Assembly (NCBI GenBank): GCA_965205265.1
Contig: CBDBGH010000003.1
Coordinates: 3,232,001 to 3,296,000 of the forward strand
DNA length: 64,000 nt
Direction of reading: 5' to 3'
Source: Alphaproteobacteria bacterium
GTDB lineage: Bacteria > Pseudomonadota > Alphaproteobacteria > Bin95
Shown in pieces: positions 5,424-52,700 of this stretch. How positions within the stretch are numbered: the stretch's first letter is position 1; each line of letters opens with the position of its first letter. Made by a program: the position numbers and the translations under genes. A model generated the notes under the pieces. It saw only the letters and a program-made list of their open reading frames with translations. It did no database searches and was not told the origin of the DNA.

Positions 5424-5427
5424 CGCT

Positions 5428-27366: not shown

Positions 27367-27367
27367 G

Positions 27368-29967: not shown

Positions 29968-29990
29968 GGCCGGCCTCTCCGTCCCCGGCG

Positions 29991-32954: not shown

Positions 32955-32967
32955 TATGTATGCGCCC

Positions 32968-36402: not shown

Positions 36403-37151
36403 GGTCGGCCCTCCCCATACAGGCGTTCGAGAAAGGCCTTCGCGACCGTGCGTCCGGCATCGCCTTCATCCGCGACCGCCTCCAGCGCGGCAACGAGGCC
36501 GATGTTCCCGGCAACGAGATCGTGCAGCGGAGCGGCGTCGCCTGAGCAGCCCCGGCTCTCGCAGGGCGGCACGCCGCCCGGCGCGACGACCACGGCGGGC
36601 ACGCGCGTCACGGCAAACAGGCGGAACAGGCGCGGGTCGATGGCAACGCCGGCGTCCGTCCCGCCAAGCCGTTCGCCGATCCGCTTCGCGGTCTCCGGCA
36701 AGCCGCCTTCGCCCACGCCGCGCAGCACCAGCGGCGTGCCCGACCTTGCGGCGTCATCCGCCCATTGCCGCCAGCTCGCCGCCGGCACCGACAGGCTGAT
36801 GAAGATCAACACCTCCGCCGAGGCGGGGCGGTGGTCTGCGAATGCACCCGCATGGCGTTCGGCCGGCAGCGGGGCGGGGAGCGGCCCCGCATCCTGTCCG
36901 GGAACCGCCTGCCGCGCGGTCTCTCCCGCCTTCTCCAGCACCCGGTCGATGACGCCGCGTGTCCAGGCGCCGAGCGAGCCATCGCCGCCGTTCCCCGCAC
37001 GGCGCATGACGTCCTCGACAAGCCGGCTTGCAGCCGCTTCGGGAGTCCCGGCCGGCGGGCTTCCGTCCGCCCGGACAGAACCGGGAGGGCCGGCCGCCAG
37101 CAGCGAAGCAGCCAGGAGCGCCGCTGCGAAGCCCCGCCGAACACGCTTCAT
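36399..37151 (-). CDS. trbC: F-type TrbC pilin assembly protein
   Basis: FISLSVP, LVLRG, IDPRLFRLFAVTRVPAVV, D.VAGNI. Confidence 0.88.
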   Translation of the reverse strand: MKRVRRGFAAALLAASLLAAGPPGSVRADGSPPAGTPEAAASRLVEDVMRRAGNGGDGSLGAWTRGVIDRVLEKAGETARQAVPGQDAGPLPAPLPAERHAGAFADHRPASAEVLIFISLSVPAASWRQWADDAARSGTPLVLRGVGEGGLPETAKRIGERLGGTDAGVAIDPRLFRLFAVTRVPAVVVAPGGVPPCESRGCSGDAAPLHDLVAGNIGLVAALEAVADEGDAGRTVAKAFLERLYGEGRP

Positions 37152-37195
37152 TTCTTCATCCTCTGCACTCGATTTATCCAGGCGTTTCAACAGGT

Positions 37196-38194
37196 TCACA
37201 TCGAACAGCAATTGCGTTTCCTCCACAGCAGGTAGCCGAAGCTCTCGCCCGAGACGGGCAGCTCGCGGAGCGACTCCCACAACACCGAGGAGCGCCCGGT
37301 CGGGTTGCAGCCCGTCATCGGCGTCGTTGCCGGCACCGGCTGGGTCATCTGCCAGCGGTACTGCGACTTCTTCATCACCGGCATCGGATAGCGCCCGCAG
37401 AGCGCGGCCGATCCGGATGTTCCCCAGGCGATCCCCGTGCGGTGCAGCCGGTAGACCAGCCGCTGGGCTGCCAGCAGCGAGGCCTGCACGCCGCCGACAT
37501 GGGCCGCGACATTGCCGGTCAGCGGATACATCCCGCCCTGGCAACCGGCGCACCAGAACAGCGCATCGAGCGGCAGGGCCGCGGTCGCGGCCGCGCAGTC
37601 GGCTGCGCAGGCGGCCTGGGCCGGCAGGCCGGCGAACAGCGCCGCCTCGGGGTTCAAGAGGAACGACAACTCGTCGTCGAGCCAGGCCGGGTCGAGTTCG
37701 GAGACCCAGGCGATGTCAAGCGACCCGCCCTCCAGGCAGCCCAGATCGAGCAGGGCGCCGATCCACGACAGCAGCGGATATGTGTACCAGTGCGCGTGCC
37801 AGACCGAGCCGGCCGCGCCGTCGCCGCCCGAGGAGCCGGTGCGGCCCCTTGCGGCCGGCAGGCCCGGATCGATGGCGAGGCCGCCGAGATTGGGGAAGCA
37901 CCACGGCGTGCGGGTCACGTCCACCAGCCTTGCCGGCTCCCAGACGCCGAGCGCGAGGCCGATGCGGGGGATGGGCGAGCCGCAGACGCAGACCGGCGAG
38001 GACGGGTTGGGCGTGTCCGGCGCGCCCGAGGCGCTGCCGACGGTGACCGGCCCGATCGAGATCGGGAACAGGCATTCCCAGCAGACATCCGCGACCGGGT
38101 TCACGAACCGCCCCGTGCAGGTCTGCGCCGGGGCCGGCGCGGCCCACAGCATCGCCACGACAAGGGCTGCCACGGGAAGGACGCGCCGGGTCAT
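37196..38194 (-). CDS. traU: F-type TraU
   Basis: CTGRFVNPVADVCWECLFPISIG, FWCAGCQGGMYP, GYLLWRKRNCC. Confidence 0.95.
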   Translation of the reverse strand: MTRRVLPVAALVVAMLWAAPAPAQTCTGRFVNPVADVCWECLFPISIGPVTVGSASGAPDTPNPSSPVCVCGSPIPRIGLALGVWEPARLVDVTRTPWCFPNLGGLAIDPGLPAARGRTGSSGGDGAAGSVWHAHWYTYPLLSWIGALLDLGCLEGGSLDIAWVSELDPAWLDDELSFLLNPEAALFAGLPAQAACAADCAAATAALPLDALFWCAGCQGGMYPLTGNVAAHVGGVQASLLAAQRLVYRLHRTGIAWGTSGSAALCGRYPMPVMKKSQYRWQMTQPVPATTPMTGCNPTGRSSVLWESLRELPVSGESFGYLLWRKRNCCSM

Positions 38195-38568
38195 GCCCCG
38201 GATCCCCCATCGCCGTCTTCCGGCCGCCGCTTCGCCAGCACGCTCACCATTCCCTGCGGCCCGGCGGCGACGATCTCGTTGACGCTGCGTTCCACGCCGT
38301 CGGAGCCGGTGTATCTCCGGGTCGCGAGCCGGCCTTCGACCAGCACGGCATCGCCCTTCTTCAGCATCCGTTCGACGATGCCCACGGCCGGGCCGTAGAC
38401 CGTGATGCGGTGCCATTCGGTCGACTCGACGGTCTCCCCGTTCCGGTCCTTCCACCGTTCCGTCGTGGCGAGGCTGAAGGACGCCGCCTTGTTGCCGTTG
38501 GCGAGAGAGCGGATCTCGGGGGCGCGTCCGGCATGGCCGAGCAGGGTCGCGCGGTTCACGGTCAGCAT
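38191..38568 (-). CDS. ssb: Single-stranded DNA-binding protein lacking the acidic C-terminal tail
   Basis: VNRATLLGH, FSLATTERWKD, TEWHRI, VEGRLATRRY. Confidence 0.9.
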   Translation of the reverse strand: MLTVNRATLLGHAGRAPEIRSLANGNKAASFSLATTERWKDRNGETVESTEWHRITVYGPAVGIVERMLKKGDAVLVEGRLATRRYTGSDGVERSVNEIVAAGPQGMVSVLAKRRPEDGDGGSGA

Positions 38569-39278
38569 GGCTTGCGTCTCCTGTTGTCCGGTCGATGAGT
38601 TGTCGGGACCGCCTGGCAGTCCGCCGCAGGCCGGTCGTCGATCGGGATTTCCGTGAGGCGCAGGAGCCGGCCTTCCTGCGCGACCAGCGTGGGCGTGGCG
38701 CGGATCGCGAAGCGCTCGGCGAGCCGCCCGCCCGCATCGAAGAAGAAGGGCCGGCCGTGGCGGCGCATGAGATCGAGCGGCCGCCCGGCGAGCAGCACGA
38801 TCTTCGCGGGACGATGATGGGCCAGCGCCCAGGCAATCTCGGCTTCGCGCCGGCCGTCGACGAACAGCAGGGCGCGCGTCAGCGGCAGACGCTCCAGCGG
38901 GTCGAGCCTGGTCCCGGCGGCGGCGATCAGCGCGCCGTCCGGGCCGCGGATGTCCTGCGCCACCGTCACAGCGGGATCGAACAGGCGGCTCTTGCGTTCC
39001 CGCGCCGGCGCGATGCCCGGCACGGGGTCCGGCGCTTCCAGCGTTCGCCGCGCCCGCTCGCGAGCTTCCTCTTCCAGCCGCACCAGTGCGCCCGAACGCT
39101 GCATCTCCGCGAGCCGCGCCTCGATCGCCGCCAGCAGGTCCGGCTCGGCCACCGGCCAGGTCGCGCCGCGCATGCCCAGGTCCTTCGCCGAAGCCCCGGA
39201 CACGATCCCGGCCACCGGCGCGGCCAGCATCAGCGCGACGCAAAGGGCCGTGAGGGAAGGCGGGATCAGGCGCCTCAT
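38562..39278 (-). CDS. traW: F-type TraW
   Basis: KDLGMRGATWPVAEPDLL, FDPAVTV, FFFDAGG.L..RF.I..TP. Confidence 0.92.
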   Translation of the reverse strand: MRRLIPPSLTALCVALMLAAPVAGIVSGASAKDLGMRGATWPVAEPDLLAAIEARLAEMQRSGALVRLEEEARERARRTLEAPDPVPGIAPARERKSRLFDPAVTVAQDIRGPDGALIAAAGTRLDPLERLPLTRALLFVDGRREAEIAWALAHHRPAKIVLLAGRPLDLMRRHGRPFFFDAGGRLAERFAIRATPTLVAQEGRLLRLTEIPIDDRPAADCQAVPTTHRPDNRRRKPC

Positions 39279-39850
39279 CGCCGCGCCTCCGTCGCCGCAT
39301 CCTCCGGCCCGGCCAGCGGTCCTTCGAGTCCGAGCCGCGGAATATCCGGCAGGGCGATGGCGCGTCCGAGGATGCGTTCGCGCGGCACAAGCCCGATCTC
39401 CCCGTAGCGGCTGTCGTGGCTGTCGATGTGATCGCCGTGCAGGTAGTAATGCCCCGCCGGGATGATTCCGGACGCAATCGCTTCGAGCGGCCGCCCGTCG
39501 AGCGCATGGCTCTTGGCCCGGCCCGTGGCGACGCCGTCCACTCGCACCGTGCGGTCGGCATCGACCGCGACCGCCATGCCCGGCGTGCCGCGCACGGTCT
39601 TGAGATACGGGACCGGAGAGCCCGCCACCTCCGGCGGCTCGAACAGCACCCGGTCGCCGACCTCCGGGGCTGCGCCGAACAGCGGGACGGCGGCATAGCC
39701 CCAGGCCCCGTCCGACCAGCTTGCATTGACATGCACCCGCGAGACGGTGGCGAGCCACAGCGCCGCCAGCGCCGCGAGCAGGGCAAGGCCGATCCGGGCG
39801 CGGCGCCTGCCGGCGGACCGTTCCGCCGCTCCTTCGATGCGCGCGCTCAC
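39275..39850 (-). CDS. S26-family conjugative signal peptidase (TrhF/TraF-like pilin processing)
   Basis: N-terminal TM, VNASWS, YLKTVRGTPG, SHDSRY..IG. Confidence 0.85.
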   Translation of the reverse strand: MSARIEGAAERSAGRRRARIGLALLAALAALWLATVSRVHVNASWSDGAWGYAAVPLFGAAPEVGDRVLFEPPEVAGSPVPYLKTVRGTPGMAVAVDADRTVRVDGVATGRAKSHALDGRPLEAIASGIIPAGHYYLHGDHIDSHDSRYGEIGLVPRERILGRAIALPDIPRLGLEGPLAGPEDAATEARR

Positions 39851-40209
39851 CGCCGGCGCTCCCGGACAGCATCCGGCTGCGCCAGCATTTCGGCGAGCAC
39901 AAGACGGACCCGGTCGGTGAGATCGGGCGCTCCGGCCGCCACGGCGCGGGCGGGCACCAGGACGACCCGGCCGCGCTCCGCGACATGAGCGAGCGCCTCC
40001 TCCAGCGCCGCCGCCCAGATGCGCGTCTCTACGGGCGGCAGGTCAGCGCGGGCCGCGTCGCCCGCCCGTTCCGCCACGATTTCCGCCAGCCGCACGGTCG
40101 CGACGCGCGGCCCGCCGCCATCGGCGAGGCGCACCGTCGCGGCAGCGACCGCCGCGGCGACGCCGGCCGACAGCAGGACGGCGGCCACCAGCACGCGAGC
40201 CTCGTTCAC
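39847..40209 (-). CDS. trbI: TrbI-like F-type T4SS protein
   Basis: N-terminal TM, VVLVPARAVAAGAPDLT, position between traC and traW. Confidence 0.72.
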   Translation of the reverse strand: MNEARVLVAAVLLSAGVAAAVAAATVRLADGGGPRVATVRLAEIVAERAGDAARADLPPVETRIWAAALEEALAHVAERGRVVLVPARAVAAGAPDLTDRVRLVLAEMLAQPDAVRERRR

Positions 40210-40523
40210 CGCGCGTCTCCCGCCGCGTCTTGACGCGCGGTCATCCGGACGTATGCGCGGGTGTCGCGGTGCCTGAACCAGGCCGTGCCGTCCTCGTCGT
40301 GGAACATGTAGAGGTAGTGGCCGGCCCAGTTGCCCGCCGACGGTTCGGCCGAGAGCAAGCCCGCCAGGATCGCGGCGCGGAACACCGCCTCGGCGTCGCG
40401 CACGACCCGCAGGGCCGGCGCGCCCCGGCGGCGCCGGTCACGCCGCCAGCGGCCGCGCGTCATCGTTCCGTTCCTTCCCATGCGCCCTTTCCGTTGCTCT
40501 CTCCGTCTGCAGGTTCGCGACAT
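40206..40523 (-). CDS. Hypothetical protein inside tra operon
   Basis: Protein-like core FRAAILAGLLS...AGHYLYM...FRHRDTRAY; overlaps trbI start; start codon uncertain. Confidence 0.55.
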   Translation of the reverse strand: MSRTCRRREQRKGRMGRNGTMTRGRWRRDRRRRGAPALRVVRDAEAVFRAAILAGLLSAEPSAGNWAGHYLYMFHDEDGTAWFRHRDTRAYVRMTARQDAAGDAR

Positions 40524-41199
40524 CGTCCTTCTCCTCGTTGCCTTCGGTCGGGTTGCGGCTTTCCCCGGAAGCGCCTGCGGCGCCGGGCGGCGCGGCGAGC
40601 GCGCGGTAGCGCGCCAGCCAGAGCCGCGCCGCCCGGCCCGGTTCGACCGGGCGGATGCGTCCGGTCAGCGGCGGGAACGCCATGCCGGTGCCTGCGCCGG
40701 GCGCGCCGCCAGCGCAGAACGCAGCGAGATCGCGGCGCTCGGCGGCGGCGGTCATGCGGGCGACGAAGCGCAGCAGTTCCGCCTCGTCGGCCGTGGGCGC
40801 GCCGTCGAGGCCGGCGGCTTCGCGCACGGCCCGGTCGATGGCGGCGCCGGCGCGCCGGGACCGTTCGGCGGCCCGCGCCGAGGCCGGACCGTTGGCTTCG
40901 ATGTCGCCCAGCCAGGCGATGCGGGCGTCGGCGAGGAGCGCGTGGAGCGCCAGCCGCCGCCGCTCCCCGGGTCCGGCGAACGCCTCGACCGCCTCGCTCG
41001 CCACCACGGCGCGCTGCGCAACGGCGTAGAACCGGCGCGTGCGCCCGCCCCAGAGGCAGGTGTTGGCCAGCACATGGGCCAGCGCCTCGAAGTCGATGCC
41101 GGCCGTCGTCACCGTTTCCGGATCGCCCGGCCAGACGAGCGGCCGTTCCGGGTCCGCGGTCCCGGCGCGCCGGTTCCCGCCCTGCGTCTTCATGGCCAT
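40438..41199 (-). CDS. YfbR/YfdR-like HD-domain protein with substituted metal ligands
   Basis: IDFEALAHVLANTCLWGGR..FYAVAQRA...ALHALLADARIAWLGDI versus family YSVAQHS / LLHDAAEAYLGD. Confidence 0.65.
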   Translation of the reverse strand: MAMKTQGGNRRAGTADPERPLVWPGDPETVTTAGIDFEALAHVLANTCLWGGRTRRFYAVAQRAVVASEAVEAFAGPGERRRLALHALLADARIAWLGDIEANGPASARAAERSRRAGAAIDRAVREAAGLDGAPTADEAELLRFVARMTAAAERRDLAAFCAGGAPGAGTGMAFPPLTGRIRPVEPGRAARLWLARYRALAAPPGAAGASGESRNPTEGNEEKDDVANLQTERATERAHGKERNDDARPLAA

Positions 41200-43786
41200 T
41201 CAATCTCTCCCGTTGCTGTCGTTTGCGATGGTCCGGATTGCCCGGTTCCGGCGCCTGCGGTTCCGTCCCCGCCCGCGAGCCGGTCGATGGCCTCGATCGT
41301 CGTCAGCCCCTCGGCCTTGAGCCGCTCGACCGCCGCGAAGGCGGGGCCGCGCGAGGAGAACAGCGCCACCGACCACGGATCGAGCACCAGCCGCGCCACC
41401 CGCCAGCCGTCCGGGCCGTGCAGCACCAGTTCGGCGTATCTGCCGTCGGCCGTGGTCAGGCTCTTGAGCGCCCTCTCCATGCCGGGATCGCAGTGGATGC
41501 GCTTCTCCTGCTTCAGCAGTTCGACCGACTCGTCCTTCTGGGCGAGGAAGATCACCCAGTCCGAGTTCTCCCAGGCGGCCCGTGCGGCCGGATTGGCGTA
41601 GTAGTCGTTGACCGACTGGGTGCCGGTGATGAGAGCGCCGCGATACTTGCGCGCCCGTCTGGCCGCGCCTTCGAGGAACGCCTTCGAGTCCTCGCCGGAG
41701 AGCAGGTCCCAGGCCTCGTCGATGACGATCGCCTTCGCCCGCGTGCGCTCCCCGTGATACATCCTCTGGGTGGCGAGGAAGACCACCAGCATCAGCACGA
41801 CGGCCTGCACGTCGCCCCGTCCCTTGAGTTCGGCGAGTTCGAACACGGTGAGCGCGTTCTCCAGGTCGGGGACGTTGCTTCCCGCGAACAGCCTTCCCAT
41901 CGGCCCGCCCGGGCACCACGGCCCCAATGCCGTCGCCATGTCCTTGGCCCGCCGGTCGTCGCGGGCATGCAGGTTCTCGCGCACCGTGCCGAGATCGACC
42001 TCGTTGCCTCTCTCGTCCCAGGCCGCCGCGATGGCCTCGGCGATCAGCGCCGCCTCGATGTCGTCGATGGAGCCGCGCCGCCGGCACATGCGCCCGATGA
42101 CGCCGGCCAGCATGGCGAAGCACTCCTCGCGGTAGTCGCCGTCATGGGCCGCCGTGCCGGCGTCGATCATGGCGAAGGGGTTGAGGCAGGCCGGGTCCTT
42201 GCCGAAGGCGATGAACGCGCCGTCGAGGGCTTCGGCCGTGTGCTGGAACGAGCGGCCGTCGTCGATCACCACGGCCTCGCCGCCGGCGCCGATCAGGCCG
42301 GTCACCAGTTCCTGCATCAGCACCGACTTGCCGGAACCGGACTTGCCGGTGACGGCGACGTTGTAGTTGCCGGCCTCGTTGGCGAAGGGCGACCAGCCGG
42401 CCGGCTGGCCCCGGCGCCCGACGAGGAACAGGACGGGCGGCGTCTCCGCCGAGGCCGGCCCGGGGGGCGCGCTGCCCTGGCCGCGCCACTCGCCGTGGAT
42501 GGGGGCGAGATCGACCGCCGAGGAGGTCAGGAGGGTCTTCATCCGGCCCATGCGTTCGAGATCGGCGTCGAGGCCGCCCGCCGGGACCATCGGCAGGCAT
42601 GCGAGCCAGGAGGGCAGCTGCATGTAGCGTTCGGCCCCGACACGCCAGCCCTGGCCGTGGTAGATGGCGCGCACCGCCTGCTCGGCCTCGTCGATGGCGT
42701 CGAGCGGGGCGTAGACCGCCACCGTGTAGCAGGCCCGGACCAGCCGCTCGCCGTCCTTGAGGCGCTCGGTGACGAACTGCCAGTCGCGCGCCTTCTCCGG
42801 CAGGCCGGGGAGATAGCGCGCGATGCCGGTGCCGGCCTGCTGGGTGGCGCGCGCGCTCTTCAGGAACGCCCGCTCGCCGGCGGCGGCATCGCCCGTCATC
42901 ACCGTCAGGCAGGTCAGCACCGGGCAGCCGGGCTGGAGGAAGTCGCGGTGGAAGTCGCCGATCAGCGCGTTGCCGCGCCAGCCGGGCCAGACCTCGGGAA
43001 AGGCCAGCGCCACAGCACCCGGACCGCGACGTCCGGGCCGTCGGGATCATGGAACACGAGCCCGGTGGGGTGGACGGTGAGCGCGCGGCCCGGCGCGGCG
43101 CATTGCCGGTGCAGGGGATCGCACGGCGCCCAGCGCCGGTGCGGGCGGGCGAGACCGTCCATGTCCCTGTCCACCGTCGGCGCGGCCAGTTCGGCGGCGA
43201 GCGAGAGCAGCCCGTCCGGGCCGAGCCGCCGAGCCGCCGCCCCGGCCGAGGCCAGCGTGCCTTCGAGCGCCCGGCGGAAGGCCGAAAGCGCCGTCTCGGA
43301 CGCCGGGCCGGGCGGTCCCGCCAGGCAGGCGGTCACGAACACCCGGTAGTCCGACAGCGTGAAGGGCGGGCCGCCCGGATGCAGCGGACGCCAGCCCGCG
43401 CCGTCGAAGAGGCGGCGCCTGCGGCGCGCCATGCCGGCCTGCACCGGACCCGCGTGCCTGCGCGGCGCGGCCCAGCCGTCGAGCGCCGCGCCGAAGCGCG
43501 GGCTCGCCCAGTGGATCGCCTGCACCGTGCAGCGCTCCGGGGCGGCGTCGGCCAGGGTGCCGGCGAGCGCCCCCAGGGTCTCGGCGTCGATGCCGGCGAA
43601 GGGCGGGACCTCCAGCACGAAGCCGACCGAGCCGGCATTGACATGGAGTTCGCCGCGTTCGTCGAAGGCGCGCCACGGCAGCAGGTCGTGGAGCGCCGCC
43701 GGGGTCTCGGGGAGAGACCACGGCTCCAGCCCCGCCGGGCCCTCGAACAGGTCGGCGAGCCGGGCCAGCATCCCGGACCGGCTCAC
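41190..43786 (-). pseudogene. traC: F-type VirB4-like ATPase TraC with apparent 1-bp frameshift near 43011
   Basis: N-part (HDLLPWRAFD, SVGFVLEV) and C-part (NYNVAVTGKSGSGKS, IDEAWDLL, RRARKYRG) in different frames. Confidence 0.88.
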
Positions 43787-44364
43787 GGCAGCCTCCAGCG
43801 CGCCGGCGCGATCACGACCCGCACCCAGGACGCCTCGCGCCAGACGCCGTCGGCATCGACGAAGGGCGCGATCCACACCCGGGCGATCGTCTCCGGCCTG
43901 CGCAGGCTGTCTGCGATCTCGTCGGCGGCCGGAGCGGAAGCCTTCTCTTGCGTTGCCGCCGGGCTGCCGGTGGCCGTGGCGGCGGCTTCCTTCTCCGGAC
44001 CGTCCTCGCCGGCGAACAGGTTCGCGATCCAGGCGAACGGATCGCAGCCCCGGATGCACGCGTCCCCGGTCCCGCCGTCCGGCGCCGTCATGGGCGGCGC
44101 CGGCGGGGCCGGCATCGCGGGTCCGCCGGTCCGCGTCACTGCCGGATCGGCCGCGGCGACGCTGGCGCACTGTGTCCCTTGCGCGAGCGGGCACTGCCAG
44201 TCCTCGCCCACATGGGTGGCGGCGCAGCCTGCGAGCGCCAGCGCCGCGAGAGCCGCCGTGAGCGGTGCCGTCAGCGGTGCCGTCAGCGGCGCCGCCGGCA
44301 TTGCCTGCGGAGCCGCCCGCAGGGTCGGCCGCCGGCCGCGCATCGTGGTCGTGCGTTCAGTCAT
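43783..44364 (-). CDS. traV: F-type lipoprotein TraV
   Basis: Lipobox LAGC, WQCP...C.SV, R.PE.IARVWIAPFVDADG. Confidence 0.9.
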   Translation of the reverse strand: MTERTTTMRGRRPTLRAAPQAMPAAPLTAPLTAPLTAALAALALAGCAATHVGEDWQCPLAQGTQCASVAAADPAVTRTGGPAMPAPPAPPMTAPDGGTGDACIRGCDPFAWIANLFAGEDGPEKEAAATATGSPAATQEKASAPAADEIADSLRRPETIARVWIAPFVDADGVWREASWVRVVIAPARWRLP

Positions 44365-45622
44365 TCTCGTTCCTCCTGCGTGGGGGTTCGGTGTCGGGCC
44401 GGCCGTCGAGCCGCGTGCCCTCGAGAAACACCACGGTGACCGCCGTCCCCGCCTGGAGCTGGATCACCGGCTGGTACTGCTCGGCGCGGCGGATCATGTA
44501 GTCGGCGACCTTGCCGCCCGCCGAGGCCGCGCCGGAGCCCAGCCCCGCGCGGCCGATGTCGCCGAGCCCGGTATTGGCGACCGCCGCACCGCCGCCGGTG
44601 GCAACCGCCTGGGGCGCGAACGCCCCCGAGACCCCCTCGCCGAGACCGGAGACGAGGCCGGCGAGGAACGCCTTCTCCACCAGCGCACCCTCGCGGCTCA
44701 CCACCGGACCGCGCACCCCGACCTTGCCGGAGCCGGCGACGAAGCCCGCCACCGGGGTCTCCACCACCGTGCCGGGCTCCCCGCCGGCGCAGGTCAGCGT
44801 CCTCAAGCGCGCATAGACCTTCTCGGAAGAGAGGTCGCCATGGGCCGCGGCCGTCACGGTGCAGCCGTCGAGGTCGACCGGCAGCGCCGCGCCGCCGCCG
44901 TCGGCCGCCGTCCATCCCGGACCGGTGATCCTCAGCAGCACCGGGCGCGGGTCGCCCTGGCTCGCGACCCCGGCCGAGGCGTCGACGCCGGCGATCACCA
45001 CCGCCTGCGCATGGGCGCCCGCCGGCAGCCACAGCGACAGCGGCTTCGCCGCCTCGGTCCCGGGATCGCCGAACACCGGTGCCTCCAGGTCGAAGCGCCG
45101 GATCAGCGGCGCCTCGGGCGGCGGCGCGGCGGCGTCTCCACCGGACGGAACCGCGCCCGGGTTGGCGGGCGCGAACACGCTGCCCGGAGCCGGGACCTCC
45201 GGCGGCGGATCGTCCGCGCCCCGGGCGCGCTCCGCCTCCCCGAGCGCCGCGGTCAGGGTGTCGATGACGCCCTTCGCCTCGTCGGCCTGGCTCCGCAGGC
45301 GGTCCTGGAGGCGGCGGTTGTCGTCGGCCAGGCGCCGGTTCTCGTCCTGCATCGCCTCGAGGTCCGCCTCGATCCGCCCGATCCGCGTCTCCGAGCGCCG
45401 CGTCCAGCTCTCCTCCGCCGTGCCGGGCCCGGCGAGTTCCGCCGCGATCCGCGGCGCCGGCGCGGGCGCCGTGCCGCCGGAGCCGGCAATCCAGGCGGCG
45501 ACGCCCAGCAGCGCCGCCGCCGCCAGAGCCGAGAACAGCAGGACCTGGCGCTGGCGCACCTGCCGCGCGCCGCCGTCCGGCGCGGCGTTCAGGGACGCCG
45601 CGGTCCTGCCCGGCGCGCTCAT
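44357..45622 (-). CDS. traB: F-type TraB (VirB10-like)
   Basis: WLPAG, GVDA, GDLSSEKVY.R...L.C, GKVGVRGPVV, ADYMIRRAEQYQPVI. Confidence 0.92.
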   Translation of the reverse strand: MSAPGRTAASLNAAPDGGARQVRQRQVLLFSALAAAALLGVAAWIAGSGGTAPAPAPRIAAELAGPGTAEESWTRRSETRIGRIEADLEAMQDENRRLADDNRRLQDRLRSQADEAKGVIDTLTAALGEAERARGADDPPPEVPAPGSVFAPANPGAVPSGGDAAAPPPEAPLIRRFDLEAPVFGDPGTEAAKPLSLWLPAGAHAQAVVIAGVDASAGVASQGDPRPVLLRITGPGWTAADGGGAALPVDLDGCTVTAAAHGDLSSEKVYARLRTLTCAGGEPGTVVETPVAGFVAGSGKVGVRGPVVSREGALVEKAFLAGLVSGLGEGVSGAFAPQAVATGGGAAVANTGLGDIGRAGLGSGAASAGGKVADYMIRRAEQYQPVIQLQAGTAVTVVFLEGTRLDGRPDTEPPRRRNEND

Positions 45623-46347
45623 CGCGACCGTCCTTCGCGCACGGCCACGGCGAGCCGGCCGTGCCCGGATCCGGCCTCCGGCGCCGCAAGCCACACCGCC
45701 GCGATGCCGGGACCGAGGCGCGCGGCCAGCGCCGCCGGGCCGGACGGCGCATCGGGTCCGGGATCCAGCACCAGCGCCGTGAACCGCGGCCCGCGCCAGG
45801 TCTCGATGACCTGCGGCGCTTCATCCGCCGCGGCACCCGCGCCTTCGATCGCGTAGCCGGCGAGCGGCTCCCGGTTCGCCACCGCCTGGATCAGTTCGGC
45901 GATGGCGGCGATGCGGGGCGCGCTCTCCCGGACGGCCGCCGCCGGCGCCGCCGCGATGGCGGCGTTGCGGATCAGGATCTGCGCCGGGCCGCCCTCCGCC
46001 GGCGTCAGCGTCAGCCGGTAGGTGAAGCCTCTCTCGGTGCCGACGAAAAGCGCCACCGGCGAGCCCGGACCGGGAGCGCCCGCGCCGTCGGCCGGCGGCC
46101 GCAGCCACAGGTCGCCCGATCCCGGATCGTGCTCGACCCGGTAGCCGCCCGGCGCCCGGATCACCCGCGCCACCCGGTCGCCCAGCAGCGCGATCCGGCT
46201 CACCCCGGCGGCCGCGACCTCGGCCGCAAGTTCGGCATGGTCGGCGGCATCCAGGATCTGCGTCGCCGACGCCGCCCCCGCCTGCCACAGCAGGAGCGCC
46301 GCGGCCAGCATGCCCGCGCAGCCTGCCTTTGGTCGTGTCGTTCTCAC
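45619..46347 (-). CDS. traK: F-type TraK (secretin-like)
   Basis: Signal peptide, SRIAL.GDRV, GDLWL, FVGTERGFTY.L.L.P; position between traE and traB. Confidence 0.82.
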   Translation of the reverse strand: MRTTRPKAGCAGMLAAALLLWQAGAASATQILDAADHAELAAEVAAAGVSRIALLGDRVARVIRAPGGYRVEHDPGSGDLWLRPPADGAGAPGPGSPVALFVGTERGFTYRLTLTPAEGGPAQILIRNAAIAAAPAAAVRESAPRIAAIAELIQAVANREPLAGYAIEGAGAAADEAPQVIETWRGPRFTALVLDPGPDAPSGPAALAARLGPGIAAVWLAAPEAGSGHGRLAVAVREGRSR

Positions 46348-46901
46348 CGTTCGTCCTCCATCTCCTCGAATCTCAGCAGTCCCAGGCGGCCGCCCTCGAC
46401 GCGGAAGGCGAGCCGGTAGGCCTTGCGTTCGCGCGAGACTTCCTCGCGCCCGATCCAGGCCGCGAGACGGCCCCGCACCTCGACGGTGAGCGTCTCCGGA
46501 TCGGCGGCGATGCTCTCCGGATAGAAGGCCGTGGCGAGGTCGCGCCGCGCCATGCGCTCGGCCTCCGCCGCCACCCAGGCGCCGATCGCGCCCCGCGCCT
46601 CCGGCGCGCTCATCCGCGCCGCCGCCTCGCGCACATGGCCGGCGTTCTCCGGCGTCAATGTCAGCAGGGTCACCGCGGCGGTGCGCGCCGCGTCCTCCAG
46701 ATAGCGCCGGCCCGCCCATGTGCTGCCGACCTCCCACACCGGGCCGGAGACCGCCGGCACCAGCACCGTGGTCGCGTCCCGCCCGGCCATGCCGACCGAG
46801 AGCGCCAGGTTGGCCACCAGCGAGAGGGCGAGCAGGCCCGCAAGGGCAAACCGCGAATCCCGCGCCCTGCGCGCCTCCGCGTCCCTGACATCCCGGCGCA
46901 T
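46344..46901 (-). CDS. traE: F-type TraE
   Basis: TM then TVLVP, YLE..A......LTLTPEN, FYP, V.G.L..WIG. Confidence 0.88.
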   Translation of the reverse strand: MRRDVRDAEARRARDSRFALAGLLALSLVANLALSVGMAGRDATTVLVPAVSGPVWEVGSTWAGRRYLEDAARTAAVTLLTLTPENAGHVREAAARMSAPEARGAIGAWVAAEAERMARRDLATAFYPESIAADPETLTVEVRGRLAAWIGREEVSRERKAYRLAFRVEGGRLGLLRFEEMEDER

Positions 46902-46904
46902 CGC

Positions 46905-47198
46905 TCAGCCCACCCGGCGCCGGACATGGCTCGGCGGCGCCGCCTTCAGGCGCAGCGCGAAGTCCGGCAGGAACCAGTAGAAGGCGCCCTGCACGACATT
47001 GGCCCCGCCGCCCCGCTTGACGCGGCGCAGCAGCCACCAGCCGGCGGCCCCGGCAACAAGGCCGGTCACGAAGGCGTTGGCGGCAAGGCCGAGCAGGGCC
47101 GGGCCGATCAGCGCCGCCGCCTCGTCCACGGTCCAGAACAGCCAGCGTTCCGGATCGTCGAGCCGGCGCGGGATCGCATGGCGCGCGGCGCCATTCAT
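46905..47198 (-). CDS. traL: F-type TraL
   Basis: IPRRLDDPERWLFWTVDE, YWFLP, PPSHVR. Confidence 0.92.
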   Translation of the reverse strand: MNGAARHAIPRRLDDPERWLFWTVDEAAALIGPALLGLAANAFVTGLVAGAAGWWLLRRVKRGGGANVVQGAFYWFLPDFALRLKAAPPSHVRRRVG

Positions 47199-47208
47199 CG
47201 CCCCGCCC

Positions 47209-47544
47209 TCACACGATCGCCGTGCCGACCAGGCCGGTGACGATGCCGGTGCCGGCCCCCGCGGCGATGCCGACGCCCACCGCGCCCATCAGCTGCATGG
47301 CGTTGAAGCGCAGCACCGAACCCACCAGCGCGGCCCCCACCGCCAGCGCCGCCGCCAGCTGGCCGCCGGTGCCCTCGACGATGTTCTCCACCGTCCCCAG
47401 CGGGCCCGCAAAGGTGCTGTCCGAGGCCGCCAGCGCCCCGTCCGCGCCCGCCAGCACGGCCGCTGCCGCCGCGAACGCCGTCAGCGTCCCGGCAGCGGCG
47501 GCAGGCGCCGCATCTCCGTTCGGCCGGGCCAGCCCCGCCGTCAC
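47209..47544 (-). CDS. traA: Conjugative pilin TraA
   Basis: Leader plus two hydrophobic helices; immediately upstream of traL; GTG overlaps upstream stop. Confidence 0.78.
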   Translation of the reverse strand: MTAGLARPNGDAAPAAAAGTLTAFAAAAAVLAGADGALAASDSTFAGPLGTVENIVEGTGGQLAAALAVGAALVGSVLRFNAMQLMGAVGVGIAAGAGTGIVTGLVGTAIV

Positions 47545-48242
47545 CGCCGCCTCCGGCCGCGCGGGCGGTCTTCCCGGTCGCCGTCGTCCGAGGTCGAGGT
47601 CCGGCGCCGTTCGGCGGCCCAGGCCACCAGATCGGCGCGCGCATAGCGGATGCGCGTCCCGAACCTGTGGAACGCCGGCCCCTGGCCGGTCACCCGGTAG
47701 CGGTCCAGCGTGCGGGGCGAGAGCCCCAGAAGGGCCGCGGCCTCCCGCGTCCCCATGTATTCCGGCAGTCCATCGTTCACCGCAGCGTCTCCTTCCCTGT
47801 CGTCTTCGGTTGTTCCGTCCGCCCCGCCGGCTCCGCCGTCCGCCAGGGCGGCGCGCATCGCCGCGCGCTCGGCCTGTGTGCAGCGGGCCGCCATCCAGCC
47901 CAGCACCCGGTCCGCGGTATCGAGCCGCGGCGACGAACCCCGGCGCAGCCGCGCAACGAAGGACGGGTCCCCCACCGCCTCGTGCCCCAGCACGTAGGGC
48001 TTGGTGCGCGTCGCCGCGACGAAGCCGTCGACCTCGGCCCGGAAGGCCGGTCCGACCGGCGCCGCACCGATGAAGGCGAGCACCCGGTCCGCGGTGTCGA
48101 GCCGCGGCATGCGCCCGCGCATCAGCCGGGAGACGAAGGACGGATCGCCCAGCGCCTCGATGCCGAGCCTTGCGGGCGCCGCGCCGGTGCGGTCGAGATA
48201 GGACCGCACGGCGTCGCGGAAACGGGTGGAAAGGGCGTTCAT
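47541..48242 (-). CDS. Regulator: two tandem Cro-like HTH repeats fused to an excisionase/AlpA-like HTH
   Basis: Internal repeat GDPSFV.RL.RG..PRLDTADRVL twice; C-terminal YMGTREAAALLGLSPRTLDRYRVTGQGPAF.RFG.RIRY. Confidence 0.75.
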   Translation of the reverse strand: MNALSTRFRDAVRSYLDRTGAAPARLGIEALGDPSFVSRLMRGRMPRLDTADRVLAFIGAAPVGPAFRAEVDGFVAATRTKPYVLGHEAVGDPSFVARLRRGSSPRLDTADRVLGWMAARCTQAERAAMRAALADGGAGGADGTTEDDREGDAAVNDGLPEYMGTREAAALLGLSPRTLDRYRVTGQGPAFHRFGTRIRYARADLVAWAAERRRTSTSDDGDREDRPRGRRRR

Positions 48243-48250
48243 GGCGAGGG

Positions 48251-48302
48251 AAGATAGGCGGGCGGATTGTCGTTGACAATCGTATCGTTTAGTGAATACG
48301 CT
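48251..48302. promoter_or_regulatory. Back-to-back sigma70-like promoters sharing a palindromic operator
   Basis: Palindrome GATTGTC-GTT-GACAATC 48265-48281; + strand TTGACA(48273)-N18-TACGCT; - strand TTGTCA-N17-TATCTT(48256-48251). Confidence 0.6.
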
Positions 48303-48346
48303 ATGCCATCGCCTGACAGGCGGCGACAGACCAGCGAGGCAGCCCC

Positions 48347-49060
48347 ATGGAACGCGACCCGGTACGACAGACAATCCGCGATCTCCTCTGGAAGCGCGGC
48401 ATGACCATGCGCGAGGCGTCGCTCGCCATCGGCCGCAACGTCTCCTACCTGCACGGTTTCCTCGAACGCGGGAGCCCCAGGGTGCTCTCCCACCGCGACG
48501 CCGAGACCCTCGCCGGCCTGCTCGGCTGCAAGGCGGACGCCCTGCACCACGCCGAACGCCCGGCCCGGCGCAAGGCAGCGGGGCCGAAGAAGCGGCGGCA
48601 GGAGACGGGGCAGGGGCCGGAACGGGGGCCGGTCCCGCTCGCCGCCATCCCCGAGGTCGATGTCGAGGCCTCGGCCGGACCCGGCGCGCTCGCCGGCGAG
48701 TACGTCGCCGAGCGTGCCCGCTGGTTCCTCCCCGATGGCATGATCCGCCACGAGGGCGGCGCCAGCCCCGGTGCCATCCGCGCGCTCCGCGTGCGCGGCG
48801 ACTCCATGGAACCCGAACTCTCGGAAGGCGACCGCCTGCTCGTCGACACCGCCCGCCGCGTCCCCGAAACCGGCGAGATGTTCGTCCTCTGGGACGGCGC
48901 CGGGCTCGTCGTCAAGCGCGTCGAGCGCCTGCCCGCCGGCGATGACGCCCCGCCCCGCCTGCGGCTGAAGTCGGCCAACCCCGGCTACGACGACTACACA
49001 TGCCTCGCCGACGAGGTCCACATCGTCGGAAAGGTCCTCTGGACCCTCAGACGGGTGTGA
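48347..49060 (+). CDS. CI/LexA-like repressor (HTH + S24 autopeptidase)
   Basis: HTH ASLAIGRNVSYLHGFL, Ala-Gly site ASAGPG, catalytic GDSMEP and VVKR, GKVLW. Confidence 0.9.
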   Translation: MERDPVRQTIRDLLWKRGMTMREASLAIGRNVSYLHGFLERGSPRVLSHRDAETLAGLLGCKADALHHAERPARRKAAGPKKRRQETGQGPERGPVPLAAIPEVDVEASAGPGALAGEYVAERARWFLPDGMIRHEGGASPGAIRALRVRGDSMEPELSEGDRLLVDTARRVPETGEMFVLWDGAGLVVKRVERLPAGDDAPPRLRLKSANPGYDDYTCLADEVHIVGKVLWTLRRV

Positions 49061-49166
49061 ACGCGGGCGGGTGCGCCATCCTTCCCGCCTTGCCGTTCAG
49101 CCGGCAGGCCGCGCACCCTCGGTGATGCTGCCGAGGCTGAAGGCCATCGCGCGGCCGGGGCGTTGC

Positions 49167-49240
49167 CTGGACAACAAGGCCGAGTACCGCTTCAGGCTCC
49201 GGGCGGTGAACAGCGCCGCCAGTGGCACGGCCACCGACCG
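49167..49240 (+). pseudogene. Possible fragment of a fibronectin type III domain
   Basis: LDNKAEYRFRLRAVNSAASG resembles the FN3 L....Y.F.VRAVN..G.G motif. Confidence 0.35.
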
Positions 49241-49484
49241 GGAAGCCTCAGCGCCAGGGCCGACGGCGATTTTCACCCCACATCCGTCGCCGTGGCGTCC
49301 CGGCATCGGGTTTCGCGTGCGGCGGTATCGCGCCCGCCGATCGTGCGCACGATATGGAGTTGTCGCCATCGGGCCCCGGGCCTTTGCCTGAAGCAGGACA
49401 GCGCAGGCGGCGCCGATGTCCGGGGCTATCGCGAAGCGGCGGCGGTCGCCGCGGAGATGCGCGCCGCGCCGGCGCGGCCGGCGG

Positions 49485-50690
49485 TCATGGCGCGGGACAC
49501 GGAGGATCGGTCTCGCCCGCCAGGTCGGCGCGGAGGCTCTCGGCGACGCGCGCCGCCGACGCCTTCACCGAATCGCGCGCGAGATGAGCGTAGCGCGCCG
49601 TGGTCTGCACCTTCCGATGGCCGAGCATCCGGCCGATCATCGGCAGGCTCTCGCCAAGCGCCAGGGCGCGCGAGGCAAAGCTGTGCCTGAGGTCATGGAT
49701 GCGGACGTCCTTCAGGTCCGCGCGGACCCGCACCGCGAGCCAGGCGTTGTTGAGGTTGCTGAGCCGCGCGCCCGGCCTCGCTCCGGAAATCACCCAGGGA
49801 TTGTCCGGCAGGCGCGGCATCCCGGCAAGCACGCGCCGCGCCGCCGGCGAGAGCGCGACCGAACGCGCGCCGGTCTTCGCGTCGCGCAACCTGATCTCGC
49901 CCGCCTCGAGGTCCACATCGGCCCAGCGCAGCGTCAGGACCTCGTTGCGCCGGCACCCGGTGAGCATCAGCAGGCGGAACGCCGCCACCGCGCTCGGATG
50001 CACCCTGCCCTCGGCCTCGACCGCGTCGAGCGTGCGCCCGAGGCGCCGGAACTCCTCATCGGAGAGGAAGCGCTCGCGGCTCTTCTCCCGATACTTGCGC
50101 ACGAACCGGCACGGATTGCCGCCCTCCGGCGCGATCCCCCACAGCTCGGCCATGCGGAAGAGGCGCGAGAGCATGTCCAGGACCCTGTTCGCCATCGCCG
50201 GCGTCTCGTGCAGGCTGTAGTGCAGCGCCGCGACGCGTTCGCGGCCGATCTCCCCGAGGCGCACCGGGCCGAGCGCGGGCAGCAGGTGCCTGTCCAGGAC
50301 ATGCCGGCACTGGCGCACCGTGGTCGGCTTGCAGCGCACCTTGACGTGCTCCGTCATGCAGCGCTCCGCCACCTCCGCGACCGTGGGGCCGGCGTCCGCC
50401 GGGGCCGCGCCGCCGTCGGGCGCCGGCTCCCTGCCGGCCTTGAGGTCGGCGATGATGCGCGCCGCCTTCGTCCGCGCCTGGTCCGCCGTCATCAGCCCGT
50501 GACGCCCGACGGTCAGCCGGCGCGACCTGCCGCCCGCCCGCGTCTGCACGAGGTAGACCTTCGAACCGCTCGGATACACGCGGACCCCGAAGCCCTGAAG
50601 CTTCGAATCCCAGTGGACCGTCTCCCGCTCGCCCACCGGCAGCGCCTCCACGGTCCGGCGCGAGATCCGCTGTGCGTTCAGCTTCGTCAT
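49485..50690 (-). CDS. Tyrosine recombinase/integrase 2 (arm-binding N-domain)
   Basis: WDSKLQGFGVRV, TGCRRNE, AKTG, HDLRHSFAS, LGH, TARYAH. Confidence 0.93.
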   Translation of the reverse strand: MTKLNAQRISRRTVEALPVGERETVHWDSKLQGFGVRVYPSGSKVYLVQTRAGGRSRRLTVGRHGLMTADQARTKAARIIADLKAGREPAPDGGAAPADAGPTVAEVAERCMTEHVKVRCKPTTVRQCRHVLDRHLLPALGPVRLGEIGRERVAALHYSLHETPAMANRVLDMLSRLFRMAELWGIAPEGGNPCRFVRKYREKSRERFLSDEEFRRLGRTLDAVEAEGRVHPSAVAAFRLLMLTGCRRNEVLTLRWADVDLEAGEIRLRDAKTGARSVALSPAARRVLAGMPRLPDNPWVISGARPGARLSNLNNAWLAVRVRADLKDVRIHDLRHSFASRALALGESLPMIGRMLGHRKVQTTARYAHLARDSVKASAARVAESLRADLAGETDPPCPAP

Positions 50691-50727
50691 CGTCCGCTCC
50701 CGGCTGTCCCCGTGTCCGTCGCGCCCG

Positions 50728-51912
50728 TCACGGATCCGCCCGCTCCGTGAGGATGTCGGCGCCGATGCTGTCGGCGACCCTCGCCGTCGAGGCCCGCACC
50801 GACTCCCGCGCGAGGTGCGCGTAGCGGGCCGTGGTGTCGATCTTCCGGTGACCGAGCAGTTCGCCGATCATGCTCAGGCTCTCGCCGAGCGCGAGCGCCC
50901 TGCTGGCGAAGCTGTGGCGCAGGTCGTGAAGGCGGACGCCGTCGAGGTCCGCGTGCCTGCGGATGCGGTCCCAGGCATCGTTGATGTTGGTCTGGTGAGT
51001 ACCCTTCTTCCGCCCCGGGAACACCCATGGATTGCCGGCGACGCGGGGCAGTGCCGCCAACACCGCCGCCGCCGCGGGCGGCATCGGCACGATGCGCGCG
51101 CCGGTCTTGCTGTCGGCGAACCGCATCTCGCCCGCCTCGAAGTCGAGGTCGTCCCAGGCCAGCCCCATGATCTCGTTGCGCCGGCACCCGGTCAGCACCA
51201 GCAACCGGATCGCCGCCGCCGAGTGACGGGAGGCGAGACGCTTCGCGGGGGCAATGTCGAGCGTGCGTCCGAGCCGTGCGAGTTCCCCGGACGTCAGGAA
51301 CCGCTCCTTCCGGGGGGCCACCTTGTAGCGGGGCACCGACCGGCATGGGTTGCGCCCCGGCGGACGCATCTCCCAGAGTTCCGCCATGTTGAACATCTTC
51401 ACCAGGATGTCGACGCAACGGTTCGCCACCGTCGGCATGCCGCTCAGACCGAACTGGAACGCGAGGATGTCCTTGCGCGCCACCTGCGACACGGGATGCG
51501 CTCCCAGGCCCGGCACGATGTGCTTCTTCAGCATCAGGCCGTAGTGCCTGATCGTATTCGGCTTGCAGTGCATGGCGACGTATTCGCGCTCGTAGCGCTC
51601 GGCCAGATCGGCCACGGTCGGCGCGGGTTCGGTCTCCGGCTCGACAGGCGGCAATCCGGCCTTGATGCGCGCAAGCAGCTTCGCCGCCTCCCTGCGCGCC
51701 TCGGCGGGCGCGATGTCCCCGTGCCGGCCCACGGTCGCGCGGACCGACCTGCCCTTCGCACGGGCCTGCGCCACATAGACCTTGCGCCCCGTGGGGTAGA
51801 CGCGAATCCCGAACCCCGGCAGTTCGCTGTCCCAGAACACGCCGTCCTTTCCGTTGACCGCGAGACGGTCCACGATACGCTTGGTAAGCGTTCGGTCCTG
51901 GCGTTCGGGCAT
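50728..51912 (-). CDS. Tyrosine recombinase/integrase 1 (arm-binding N-domain)
   Basis: WDSELPGFGIRV, TGCRRNE, SKTG, HDLRHSFAS, LGH, TARYAH. Confidence 0.93.
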   Translation of the reverse strand: MPERQDRTLTKRIVDRLAVNGKDGVFWDSELPGFGIRVYPTGRKVYVAQARAKGRSVRATVGRHGDIAPAEARREAAKLLARIKAGLPPVEPETEPAPTVADLAERYEREYVAMHCKPNTIRHYGLMLKKHIVPGLGAHPVSQVARKDILAFQFGLSGMPTVANRCVDILVKMFNMAELWEMRPPGRNPCRSVPRYKVAPRKERFLTSGELARLGRTLDIAPAKRLASRHSAAAIRLLVLTGCRRNEIMGLAWDDLDFEAGEMRFADSKTGARIVPMPPAAAAVLAALPRVAGNPWVFPGRKKGTHQTNINDAWDRIRRHADLDGVRLHDLRHSFASRALALGESLSMIGELLGHRKIDTTARYAHLARESVRASTARVADSIGADILTERADP

Positions 51913-52268
51913 GTCCTCGTTCCTACACCGGGGCGCGAAAGCGTTCGTTCAAGGTGTGACGATGATGAGGACGACGAGGCCAATTCCGTGGTTTGCCGGG
52001 CTTCGCCCGACTTCGCTCTGTGCCATCGTCCCCTCCATCAACGCATGACCGAACGCTTTCCCGGGGCGCCGGAAGCCGGTTCGGGCCCGGACGCGGGTCA
52101 CGTAAGCGGACCGAAAGCGACCGGCTGGAAATCGGGGCGCATTGAAGCGCATCCGGGGCAGGGATGCAAGGACGGAGATGGGCCACCAGACACACAAATA
52201 TAGAGAATTGACAATGGTTTATATCAGAAGAGCGCATCCAGGCGCATGCGAGGCAAGGTAGACAAAAA

Positions 52269-52700
52269 TTGAGTTGTCTTTTCGACACGAATGTGGCCTC
52301 CCAACTCATGCGCCCGGCCCCGGCCGTCGCCGTCGCGGCGTGGATTGCGGAGCGGGACGCCGGAGAGCTTTTCCTGACGGCGATCAGCGAAGCGGAACTC
52401 CTCTACGGCGTCGCCATCATGCCCGCCGGCAGGCGGCGAAACATGTTGGAAGCCGCCATGACCCGGTGGCTCGACCTCGGTTTCACCGGGCGAACCCTGC
52501 CCTTCGACAGCGCCGCCGCCCGCGCCTATGCGGAAATTGCTTCGGGCCGCCGCCGTGCCGGCCGGCCGATCGGCGAAGCCGATTGCCGGATCGCCGCCAT
52601 ATCCCGCTCGCGCGGCGCTATCCTGGTTACCCGCAATGTGCGGGATTTCGAAGAAACGGGCATCCATATCGTCGACCCCTGGTTGGATGCACGGGTTTGA
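52269..52700 (+). CDS. vapC: PIN-domain VapC/FitB-like toxin, no adjacent antitoxin
   Basis: FDTNV, ISEAEL, LPFD, ADCRIAAI, TRNVRDF, IVDPW. Confidence 0.85.
   Translation: MSCLFDTNVASQLMRPAPAVAVAAWIAERDAGELFLTAISEAELLYGVAIMPAGRRRNMLEAAMTRWLDLGFTGRTLPFDSAAARAYAEIASGRRRAGRPIGEADCRIAAISRSRGAILVTRNVRDFEETGIHIVDPWLDARV

Follow-up and report, generated by a model that had tools for sequence, protein, structure and literature searches.

How an integrated conjugative element decides to transfer, and how that decision is tied to its excision, has been worked out in detail for a handful of element families, and almost nothing of the kind is available for uncultured bacteria. The question is raised by a locus in a 64,000-nucleotide stretch of an alphaproteobacterial genome (assembly GCA_965205265.1, contig CBDBGH010000003.1, positions 3,232,001 to 3,296,000; hereafter the window, in whose own numbering coordinates are given). 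Here a gene for a CI-like repressor stands back to back with a gene that we call fus, the product of which joins two helix-turn-helix (HTH) repeats to an excisionase-like HTH, and which immediately precedes a long run of conjugation genes. The best explanation of the locus is that it is the control module of an integrated F-type conjugative element (MPF_F, TrwC/MOBF) some 26-29 kb long. Within that frame we consider it on the whole probable, from what the sequence holds, that a repressor-held promoter drives fus together with the transfer genes, and that Fus acts as an RdfS-type factor as well as a single-chain dimer of tandem XRE domains. The module is compact and conserved, comprising one repressor, a promoter pair and one fusion protein ahead of a whole transfer operon, and looks testable. 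Its parts are as follows.

48347-49060, plus strand: CI/SetR-like repressor of 237 aa, with an N-terminal XRE-type HTH and an S24 autopeptidase domain (PF00717)
48243-48346, no strand: divergent control region of 104 bp, from sequence, alignments and promoter scan
48265-48281, no strand: palindrome GATTGTC-N3-GACAATC over the shared -35, a candidate operator, lineage-specific
48251-48279, minus strand: predicted fus/tra promoter TTGTCA-17-TATCTT, from the consensus scan
48273-48302, plus strand: putative repressor promoter TTGACA (48273-48278)-18-TACGCT (48297-48302), from the sequence and conserved alignment blocks
47541-48242, minus strand: fus, 233 aa, two XRE-like repeats and an RdfS-type winged HTH
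48060-48242, minus strand: fus repeat 1, residues 1-61, XRE-like
47838-48059, minus strand: fus repeat 2, residues 62-135, XRE-like
about 47604-47759, minus strand: RdfS-type winged HTH of fus (HTH_17)
47209-47544, minus strand: pilin-like open reading frame (ORF) of 111 aa in the traA position, read from the sequence and kept 5' of traL in related loci

What kind of protein is Fus? Its two repeats are related to each other (profile-profile hhalign probability 99.5%, E 7e-23), and in an AlphaFold2 model built from a 20-sequence alignment (mean pLDDT 83.4, above 94 over residues 1-120) each forms a four-helix unit, while residues 138-158 make up a disordered linker; the protein also has a conserved acidic/Ser tail. 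The closest structures to the repeats are of the XRE type, namely restriction-modification controller C proteins, RsaL, HipB, the lambda cI N-terminal domain and P22 c2, at Z 5.0-5.7, values that lie below the trust level of the tool and are no proof alone. The match to Pfam HTH_3 (PF01381) is likewise below cutoff (19.5 bits against 23, E 0.001), and a Pfam scan of Fus listed no Cro family. A first-pass annotation of this DNA had described two Cro-like repeats followed by an excisionase-like HTH; the repeats and the HTH are borne out, whereas the repeats appear generically XRE-like, at the level of the fold only, and the label 'Cro' is a guess at function. The tandem domain has no family model of its own. 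Its profile matches 325 clusters at E <= 1e-10 among 1.84 billion representatives, and stand-alone versions amount to just 13 short matches, chiefly fragments. A search of the ESM Atlas with residues 1-135 returned small unnamed proteins at 0.88 at best, which is under the level that the tool treats as more than a lead.

The C-terminus is more telling. It matches HTH_17 (PF12728) at E 3.5e-11 and 43.6 bits (cutoff 27), and falls below the cutoff of the NCBIfam model 'excise' (TIGR01764; 19.7 bits, cutoff 28.8). In a profile search of the PDB the only match was RdfS (8DGL; E 6e-14), a homologous protein of ICEMlSymR7A from Mesorhizobium, and comparison of structures likewise ranks RdfS first (Foldseek TM 0.74, rmsd 1.7 A, 39% identity; VIA Z 9.6). 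RdfS is a proven recombination directionality factor (RDF) that binds attP and its own promoter and regulates itself (accessible part of PMC11963761). Homology to RdfS and the position of the gene suggest that Fus, too, may serve as an RDF. Alternatively, Fus could be chiefly a transcription factor of the long operon, either an activator or an AlpA-like processivity factor, with excision left to another protein. HTH_17 proteins include regulators, one source calls a family member 'regulator AlpA' (no Fus cluster carries a specific name), MerR-type regulators crowd the fold-match list of Fus at Z 6-7, and RdfS itself both activates and represses promoters (same part of PMC11963761). We hold this alternative to be rather unlikely, as the closest solved relative of Fus, in sequence and in fold, is an RDF.

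The next step is to ask how fus would be controlled. The repressor has a Peptidase_S24 domain (PF00717, E 2.7e-16, 59.8 bits against a cutoff of 23.3), and the autocleavage residues read at first sight from its sequence hold up across the family: A110-G111 and S153 (in GxSMEP) are invariant in 29 homologues from related loci, and the Lys of the VVK motif is lacking only from a single frameshifted copy. A Shine-Dalgarno sequence, GAGG, lies at 48336-48339, 7 nt 5' of the ATG. No relative was found among solved structures searched by sequence, and relatives on plasmids reach an identity of 34% at most. The host genome encodes RecA and two LexA proteins; operator binding and RecA-stimulated self-cleavage of the repressor are plausible expectations from its domains and residues.

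Between the two genes, the plus-strand hexamer TTGACA (48273-48278) and its minus-strand counterpart TTGTCA (48279-48274) share bases within the palindrome, so that the reading of a 104-bp gap with overlapping -35 boxes in one palindrome proves accurate. TTGTCA-17-TATCTT is the sole sigma-70-like match on either strand of 40000-52500 (0.1 expected), and the single such match in 22000-40000 falls downstream of the relaxase gene. The putative repressor promoter is weak: its -10 agrees at three of six positions and it fails the sigma-70 consensus scan. The leftward -10 ends 8 nt 5' of the fus ATG, with no Shine-Dalgarno sequence visible, and the mRNA is therefore predicted to be leaderless, which agrees with the almost leaderless transcript foreseen in the first-pass annotation. 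Of 51 distinct upstream regions, 33 have the same geometry, TTGnnn-16/18-TAnnnT ending 5-9 nt 5' of an in-frame start, as against 0.28 in shuffles. Leaderless mRNAs need AUG, and consistently with this the start is ATG in 32 of those 33. A shared -35 core, TTGTCAA, is found in 15 of 16 distinct short-gap intergenic regions, and both promoter patterns rest on one shared -35 in nine of 12 distinct long-gap regions. The family thus appears to be marked by divergent promoters that use a common -35, and by a leaderless start. The palindrome is present too, but is specific to the near relatives of the window; other lineages carry direct repeats instead. Exact direct repeats of at least 5 nt at a spacing of 10-12 bp occur in 14 of 16 control regions (shuffles 1.5 +/- 1.2, maximum 7 in 1000), lying either immediately 5' of the -35 and extending into it, or across the fus -10, and the repeated words vary by lineage. 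Public short contigs from runs of two studies match 47302-48555 and 47227-48061 with zero differences. A search for RNA runs that contain 46800-49200 returned none.

The same 104 bp could be read as an origin of transfer. In F-like systems the traY gene opens the tra operon, immediately 5' of traA, and its product has an internally duplicated DNA-binding fold; fus holds that position, and Fus might accordingly be taken for an accessory protein of the relaxosome, comparable to F TraY or R388 TrwA, with the control region doubling as oriT and a nick near the shared -35. The heptamer TATTGTC, found within the conserved core in four of six lineages, is the one just 5' of the R388 TrwC nick (PMC4176350, section 11), and in the window an inverted repeat, CGTAT-N10-ATACG, abuts the heptamer site. 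A 46%-identical fus paralogue lies directly 5' of a 208-aa ORF and a TrwC relaxase gene (L078, 5894-10211; G000:C3:3421893-3426210), and RdfS is required for mobilisation without excision (accessible part of PMC11963761). We nonetheless judge this reading improbable. Two overlapping -35 hexamers and a repeated half-site account for most of the heptamer, the window itself has GATTGTC rather than TATTGTC, the adjoining inverted repeat is not positionally conserved, and ATTGTCWA occurs twice in the window, a number reached in 10 of 100 shuffles. TraY is a ribbon-helix-helix protein; Fus has no TraY or ribbon-helix-helix match in Pfam at E up to 0.1, and the folds differ as well. On that strand, moreover, the tra genes would enter the recipient first, unlike in F. 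In L078 a Cas3 gene lies upstream of the fus paralogue, in divergent orientation.

Whether the switch could govern a whole transfer apparatus depends on what follows it on the minus strand. The genes named below were identified with Pfam/NCBIfam.

46905-47198, minus strand: traL
46344-46901, minus strand: traE
44357-45694, minus strand: traB
27368-29602, minus strand: traD, a TrwB-type coupling protein gene
24448-27753, minus strand: TrwC-type relaxase gene (PF08751, E 4.5e-83)
24448-47198, minus strand: the whole set of F-type transfer genes

The fus stop codon (TGA, 47543-47541) overlaps the probable GTG start (47544-47542) of the pilin-like ORF in the sequence GTGA (47544-47541), as had been claimed for traA. 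This ORF has no family match in Pfam or NCBIfam; in related loci it is kept at 58-98% identity, upstream of traL. The order after it is traL, E, K, B, V, C, trbI_F, an S26 peptidase gene, traW, U, N, F, H, G, traD and the TrwC relaxase gene, and the F-type (MPF_F) set of TraL, E, K, B, V, C, W, U, N, F, H and G is complete, the TraW match being weak (E 8.7e-4). The same-strand run extends over 23.8 kb from fus at 48242 down to the relaxase end at 24448, close to the ~24 kb first proposed, with some 390 bp separating traG from traD and with traC split between two frames: an intact 919-aa paralogue maps in frame -1 down to 42983 and in frame -3 from 43013. The split at 42983-43013 is also seen relative to an intact 992-aa paralogue of the same genome, and may be a real frameshift or an assembly error; four sequencing runs list no indel variant at the frame switch, which does not in itself prove a frameshift. 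The window as a whole has a G+C content of 70%. ARAGORN calls a tRNA-Ala(cgc) at 26162-26247, inside the relaxase gene, most likely falsely.

Damage of this kind invites the view that the locus is a remnant in decay that no longer functions here, its shared layout being due to recent copying and not to selection. Besides the frameshifted traC, the related copies L001, L003 and L004 end after fus or traL, insertion sequences (IS) are abundant in the genome, and a 55%-identical fus paralogue in this same genome, which has its own S24 gene, is truncated by an IS21 element. Against this, the module persists at 47-66% protein identity over records labelled as several phyla, with reading frames, catalytic residues and promoter geometry intact, and the four runs, without settling the matter of the frameshift, list no indel variant at the frame switch of traC. 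Decay without function is in our view the least likely of the explanations discussed here.

How widely, then, is the arrangement kept? Full-length Fus has 475 protein cluster representatives at E <= 0.001, and nearly all of the 120 clusters listed span at least 91% of the query. Among plasmids in PLSDB, none of 140 matching records covers 80% or more of Fus, the matches being confined to the HTH_17 part. Species-representative genomes were scanned with two peptide patterns, a choice that biases the set of short forms, and gave 76 fus loci, nearly all in metagenome-assembled genomes, with submitter labels including Alphaproteobacteria, Gammaproteobacteria, Binatia, Acidobacteria, Gemmatimonadetes, Nitrospinota, Chloroflexi and others. 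Such bin labels could be mistaken where contigs are short; the contigs of some Alphaproteobacteria and Binatia loci exceed 1 Mb. Several genomes hold three to five fus copies. With many copies per genome and labels from several phyla, the module may matter for gene flow in those communities. The 62 loci with enough flank, window included, are distributed as follows.

Long fus form, S24 gene and tra genes present: 28 loci
Long fus form, S24 gene present, no tra genes: 9 loci
Long fus form, no S24 gene, tra genes present: 4 loci
Long fus form, neither S24 nor tra genes: 12 loci
One-repeat fus form, no S24 gene, tra genes present: 2 loci
Short fus form (HTH_17 only), no S24 gene, tra genes present: 5 loci
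Short fus form (HTH_17 only), neither S24 nor tra genes: 2 loci

The full layout of S24 repressor, fusion and pilin-TraL-TraE, conservation of which had been put forward as a check on the proposal, is therefore found in 28 of the 62. An S24 gene adjoins 37 of 53 long forms, as against none of the nine short or one-repeat forms. The short forms also bear on whether Fus is only a transcription factor. L065 has, in sequence, tRNA-Ala, integrase, a 157-aa ORF, an 87-aa HTH_17 gene, pilin and tra (Pfam), and in L066 and L068 tRNA, integrase, HTH_17 match and pilin-tra follow one another in the same order (tRNA scan and tblastn); the HTH_17 match in such loci is 67-70% identical to the fus C-terminus. 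By gene order the short form thus seems to occupy the classic xis position next to the tRNA-side integrase, which speaks against a purely transcriptional role. The module is found without tra genes in 21 of the 62 loci, and in two loci it precedes a different operon, facts that sit more easily with such a role. In those two (L011, 6528-8381; L041, 6610-8247) the gene after repressor and fus encodes a type IVB pilus secretin of the PilN family (NCBIfam E 1.7e-45 and 4.9e-47; 78% identical to each other), so the switch also heads a non-F-type pilus operon and is not wired to pilin or F-type operons alone. In L013 and L016 an ORF of similar size, without a Pfam match, takes the place of the secretin.

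Some further features of these loci may be recorded here. After the secretin, L011 and L041 have more ORFs, including a weak PilP-like match (E 0.0084, below cutoff) and a CFI-box-CTERM protein. L054 holds three Fus matches of 37-43% identity, at 146-829, 5200-5886 and 6001-6705, the last two adjacent and the first about 4.4 kb upstream. In L034, L036, L045, L046, L063 and L077 huge surface-protein genes (fn3, Calx-beta, SWM repeat, Ig-like) adjoin the switch; their open frames span some 790-1875 aa, some being cut by the locus end, and they may be element cargo.

Taken together, these features suggest how the switch might work. The S24 repressor would hold the strong leftward promoter shut, and, as its own weak promoter shares the -35 region, it would govern its own synthesis too. 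DNA damage, through the RecA filament, would trigger self-cleavage at Ala110-Gly111, and the freed leftward promoter would yield one long leaderless mRNA, from which Fus would be made first, and then the pilin and the entire transfer machinery, provided that all 23.8 kb are co-transcribed. The RdfS-type winged helix of Fus would act as a recombination directionality factor and, in addition, as an autoregulator or an activator of transfer functions, while its two linked XRE domains might sit on the control-region repeats as a single-chain 'dimer' and fix the ON state in a Cro-like manner. A switch protein fused to an excision factor, if both identities are as likely as they look, would show how elements tie commitment, excision and transfer together, and a leaderless start for a 24-kb operon would offer a case for leaderless translation outside model phages. 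A bolder version seems to us unlikely. In it Fus is a bifunctional 'single-chain Cro plus RDF': by binding the lineage-specific repeats about the shared -35, the linked XRE domains would stop repressor synthesis and so commit the cell, and the RdfS domain would bring about excision and aid relaxosome assembly at an oriT lying within the control region. On that version two proteins and about 100 bp would suffice to sense damage, commit, excise and start transfer, and the module would be a portable cassette that can stand before F-type operons as well as type IVB pilus operons, in records that bear the labels of several bacterial phyla.

Several observations weigh against the repressor-held, Fus-led switch that we favour. 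Nothing links the Fus repeats specifically with the HTH of the repressor (hhalign probability 11%), and shared operators are accordingly not implied; the window control region has only an imperfect direct repeat and no exact one. A frameshifted traC may also leave this copy inert. The loci are not independent, several being near-identical copies inside one genome, and every strong one is from a metagenome-assembled genome. The two integrases adjacent to the repressor gene belong to a separate, independently duplicated unit, no direct or att-like repeat linking the element ends was found in the window, and in L005 and L009 the first 5 kb or so past the repressor gene are free of integrase genes. 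In the same two loci housekeeping genes follow a few kb past the repressor gene, which places the switch at the edge of the element.

The integrase unit therefore deserves a closer description.

49485-50690, minus strand: tandem tyrosine integrase 1 (Pfam)
50728-51912, minus strand: tandem tyrosine integrase 2 (Pfam)
49433-52291, minus strand: integrase-pair unit of 2.86 kb, recurring at 99% identity elsewhere in the genome

The second copy, at C3:438979-441838, is 99% identical, has sharp ends and lacks the switch. The two integrases are P4-type and 51% identical to each other, and the genome has some twenty such tandem pairs at scattered places. The unit ends 23 nt within a PIN-domain ORF (52269-52700); the idea that it targets PIN-toxin genes was rejected, as the second copy is not beside a PIN gene. 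The 18-nt sequence at the end of the unit is present a single time in the window. On the other side, the left end of the element lies at about 23.0-23.2 kb, beside an array of clustered regularly interspaced short palindromic repeats (CRISPR). No clear excised or empty-site joint was found in contigs of the four runs, which are fragmented by the repeated copies. An A+T-rich patch at 52190-52235 (minus strand), 5' of the second integrase gene, has the window's only other ATTGTCAA; it could be an arm-type site, a regulatory site or a product of chance (two matches arise in 10 of 100 shuffles).

It remains to ask how much of this is new. In lambda, an autocleaving S24 repressor, CI, is set against Cro across the divergent promoters PRM and PR, with the weak repressor promoter beside the strong lytic-side promoter, and cI transcribed from PRM is a leaderless mRNA. 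The present locus resembles lambda in its S24 repressor, its divergent promoters and the pairing of a weak repressor promoter with a strong one. It differs in that the -35 hexamers overlap on opposite strands, that the predicted leaderless mRNA is on the 'Cro side', and that the counterpart of Cro is a covalent tandem fused to an excisionase-type domain.

SXT carries F-type transfer genes with a MOBH relaxase and integrates at prfC, whereas the relaxase here is of the TrwC/MOBF type. The idea of a CI-like, SOS-linked repressor is shared with SXT/R391, in which a predicted Cro-like gene lies on the de-repressed transcript (accessible part of PMC4542580); those elements act via the FlhCD-like activator SetCD at 11 promoters, whereas here the tra genes directly follow the switch. 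FlhC/FlhD, searched for as SetCD-type activators, had no match anywhere in the genome, with a positive E. coli control, in keeping with the earlier impression that no such activator is visible. As SetCD is absent and the relaxase is of the TrwC type, the element is not a member of SXT/R391.

In ICEBs1 of Bacillus subtilis, xis is the first gene on the Pxis transcript, and the repressor gene and xis are divergent. The repressor ImmR is cut by a separate protease, ImmA, whereas the repressor described here has its own S24 domain; Xis is small and stands alone, the host is Gram-positive and the conjugation system is unrelated. No ORF for ImmA was seen between 49060 and 49485, although no search aimed at ImmA was made. 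ImmR represses the major promoter Pxis, which drives most ICEBs1 genes when the repressor is missing or has been cleaved (accessible part of PMC9956884). In ICEMlSymR7A rdfS is, like fus, the first gene of an operon of conjugation genes, an arrangement said to be common on proteobacterial integrative and conjugative elements and plasmids (accessible part of PMC11963761). The activator FseA turns it on under quorum sensing, and it stands at the head of traF-msi107, genes of a different transfer system, whereas fus has an S24 repressor as its partner and an F-type operon behind it. RdfS has 91 aa and one extra N-terminal helix; Fus has two XRE-like domains (135 aa) in front instead. A Novosphingobium plasmid relative with the rdfS-type gene layout is typed MPF_T. 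ICEAfe1 was considered as a described relative and rejected: its tra genes are in four separate clusters, and the accessible part of its description mentions no such switch.

Given the precedents of ICEBs1 and ICEMlSymR7A, the locus is not an undescribed kind of system, contrary to what was first suggested: one repressed promoter for an excisionase gene and conjugation genes is already known from ICEBs1, an rdfS-first operon from ICEMlSymR7A and an SOS-cleavable CI-like repressor from SXT. What appears to be new is the tandem-XRE/RdfS fusion, the shared -35 with its leaderless layout, and the use of the cassette before both F-type and type IVB pilus operons. As a family it seems undescribed, in that no account of the fusion or the switch was found in the literature searched, which left out most subscription journals and gives no proof of absence.

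The flank beyond the left end of the element has features of its own. The CRISPR array (19047-22977) contains at least 33 copies of a 33-nt repeat and is split by an IS (transposase ORF 20631-22205); none of its spacers matches the conjugative element, and about a dozen are shared with a second array (C3:4049306-4051833). The same flank has a Cas5d gene (14789-15673) and a further IS (17228-18928). Two DDE_Tnp_1 ORFs, at 6292-7992 (plus strand) and 17228-18928 (minus strand), are of equal length and Pfam score and inverted relative to each other. They bracket about 9 kb with a luciferase-like monooxygenase, a nitroreductase, a 3-hydroxyacyl-CoA dehydrogenase, a BKACE protein and cas remnants, in what looks like a composite-transposon or inversion layout.

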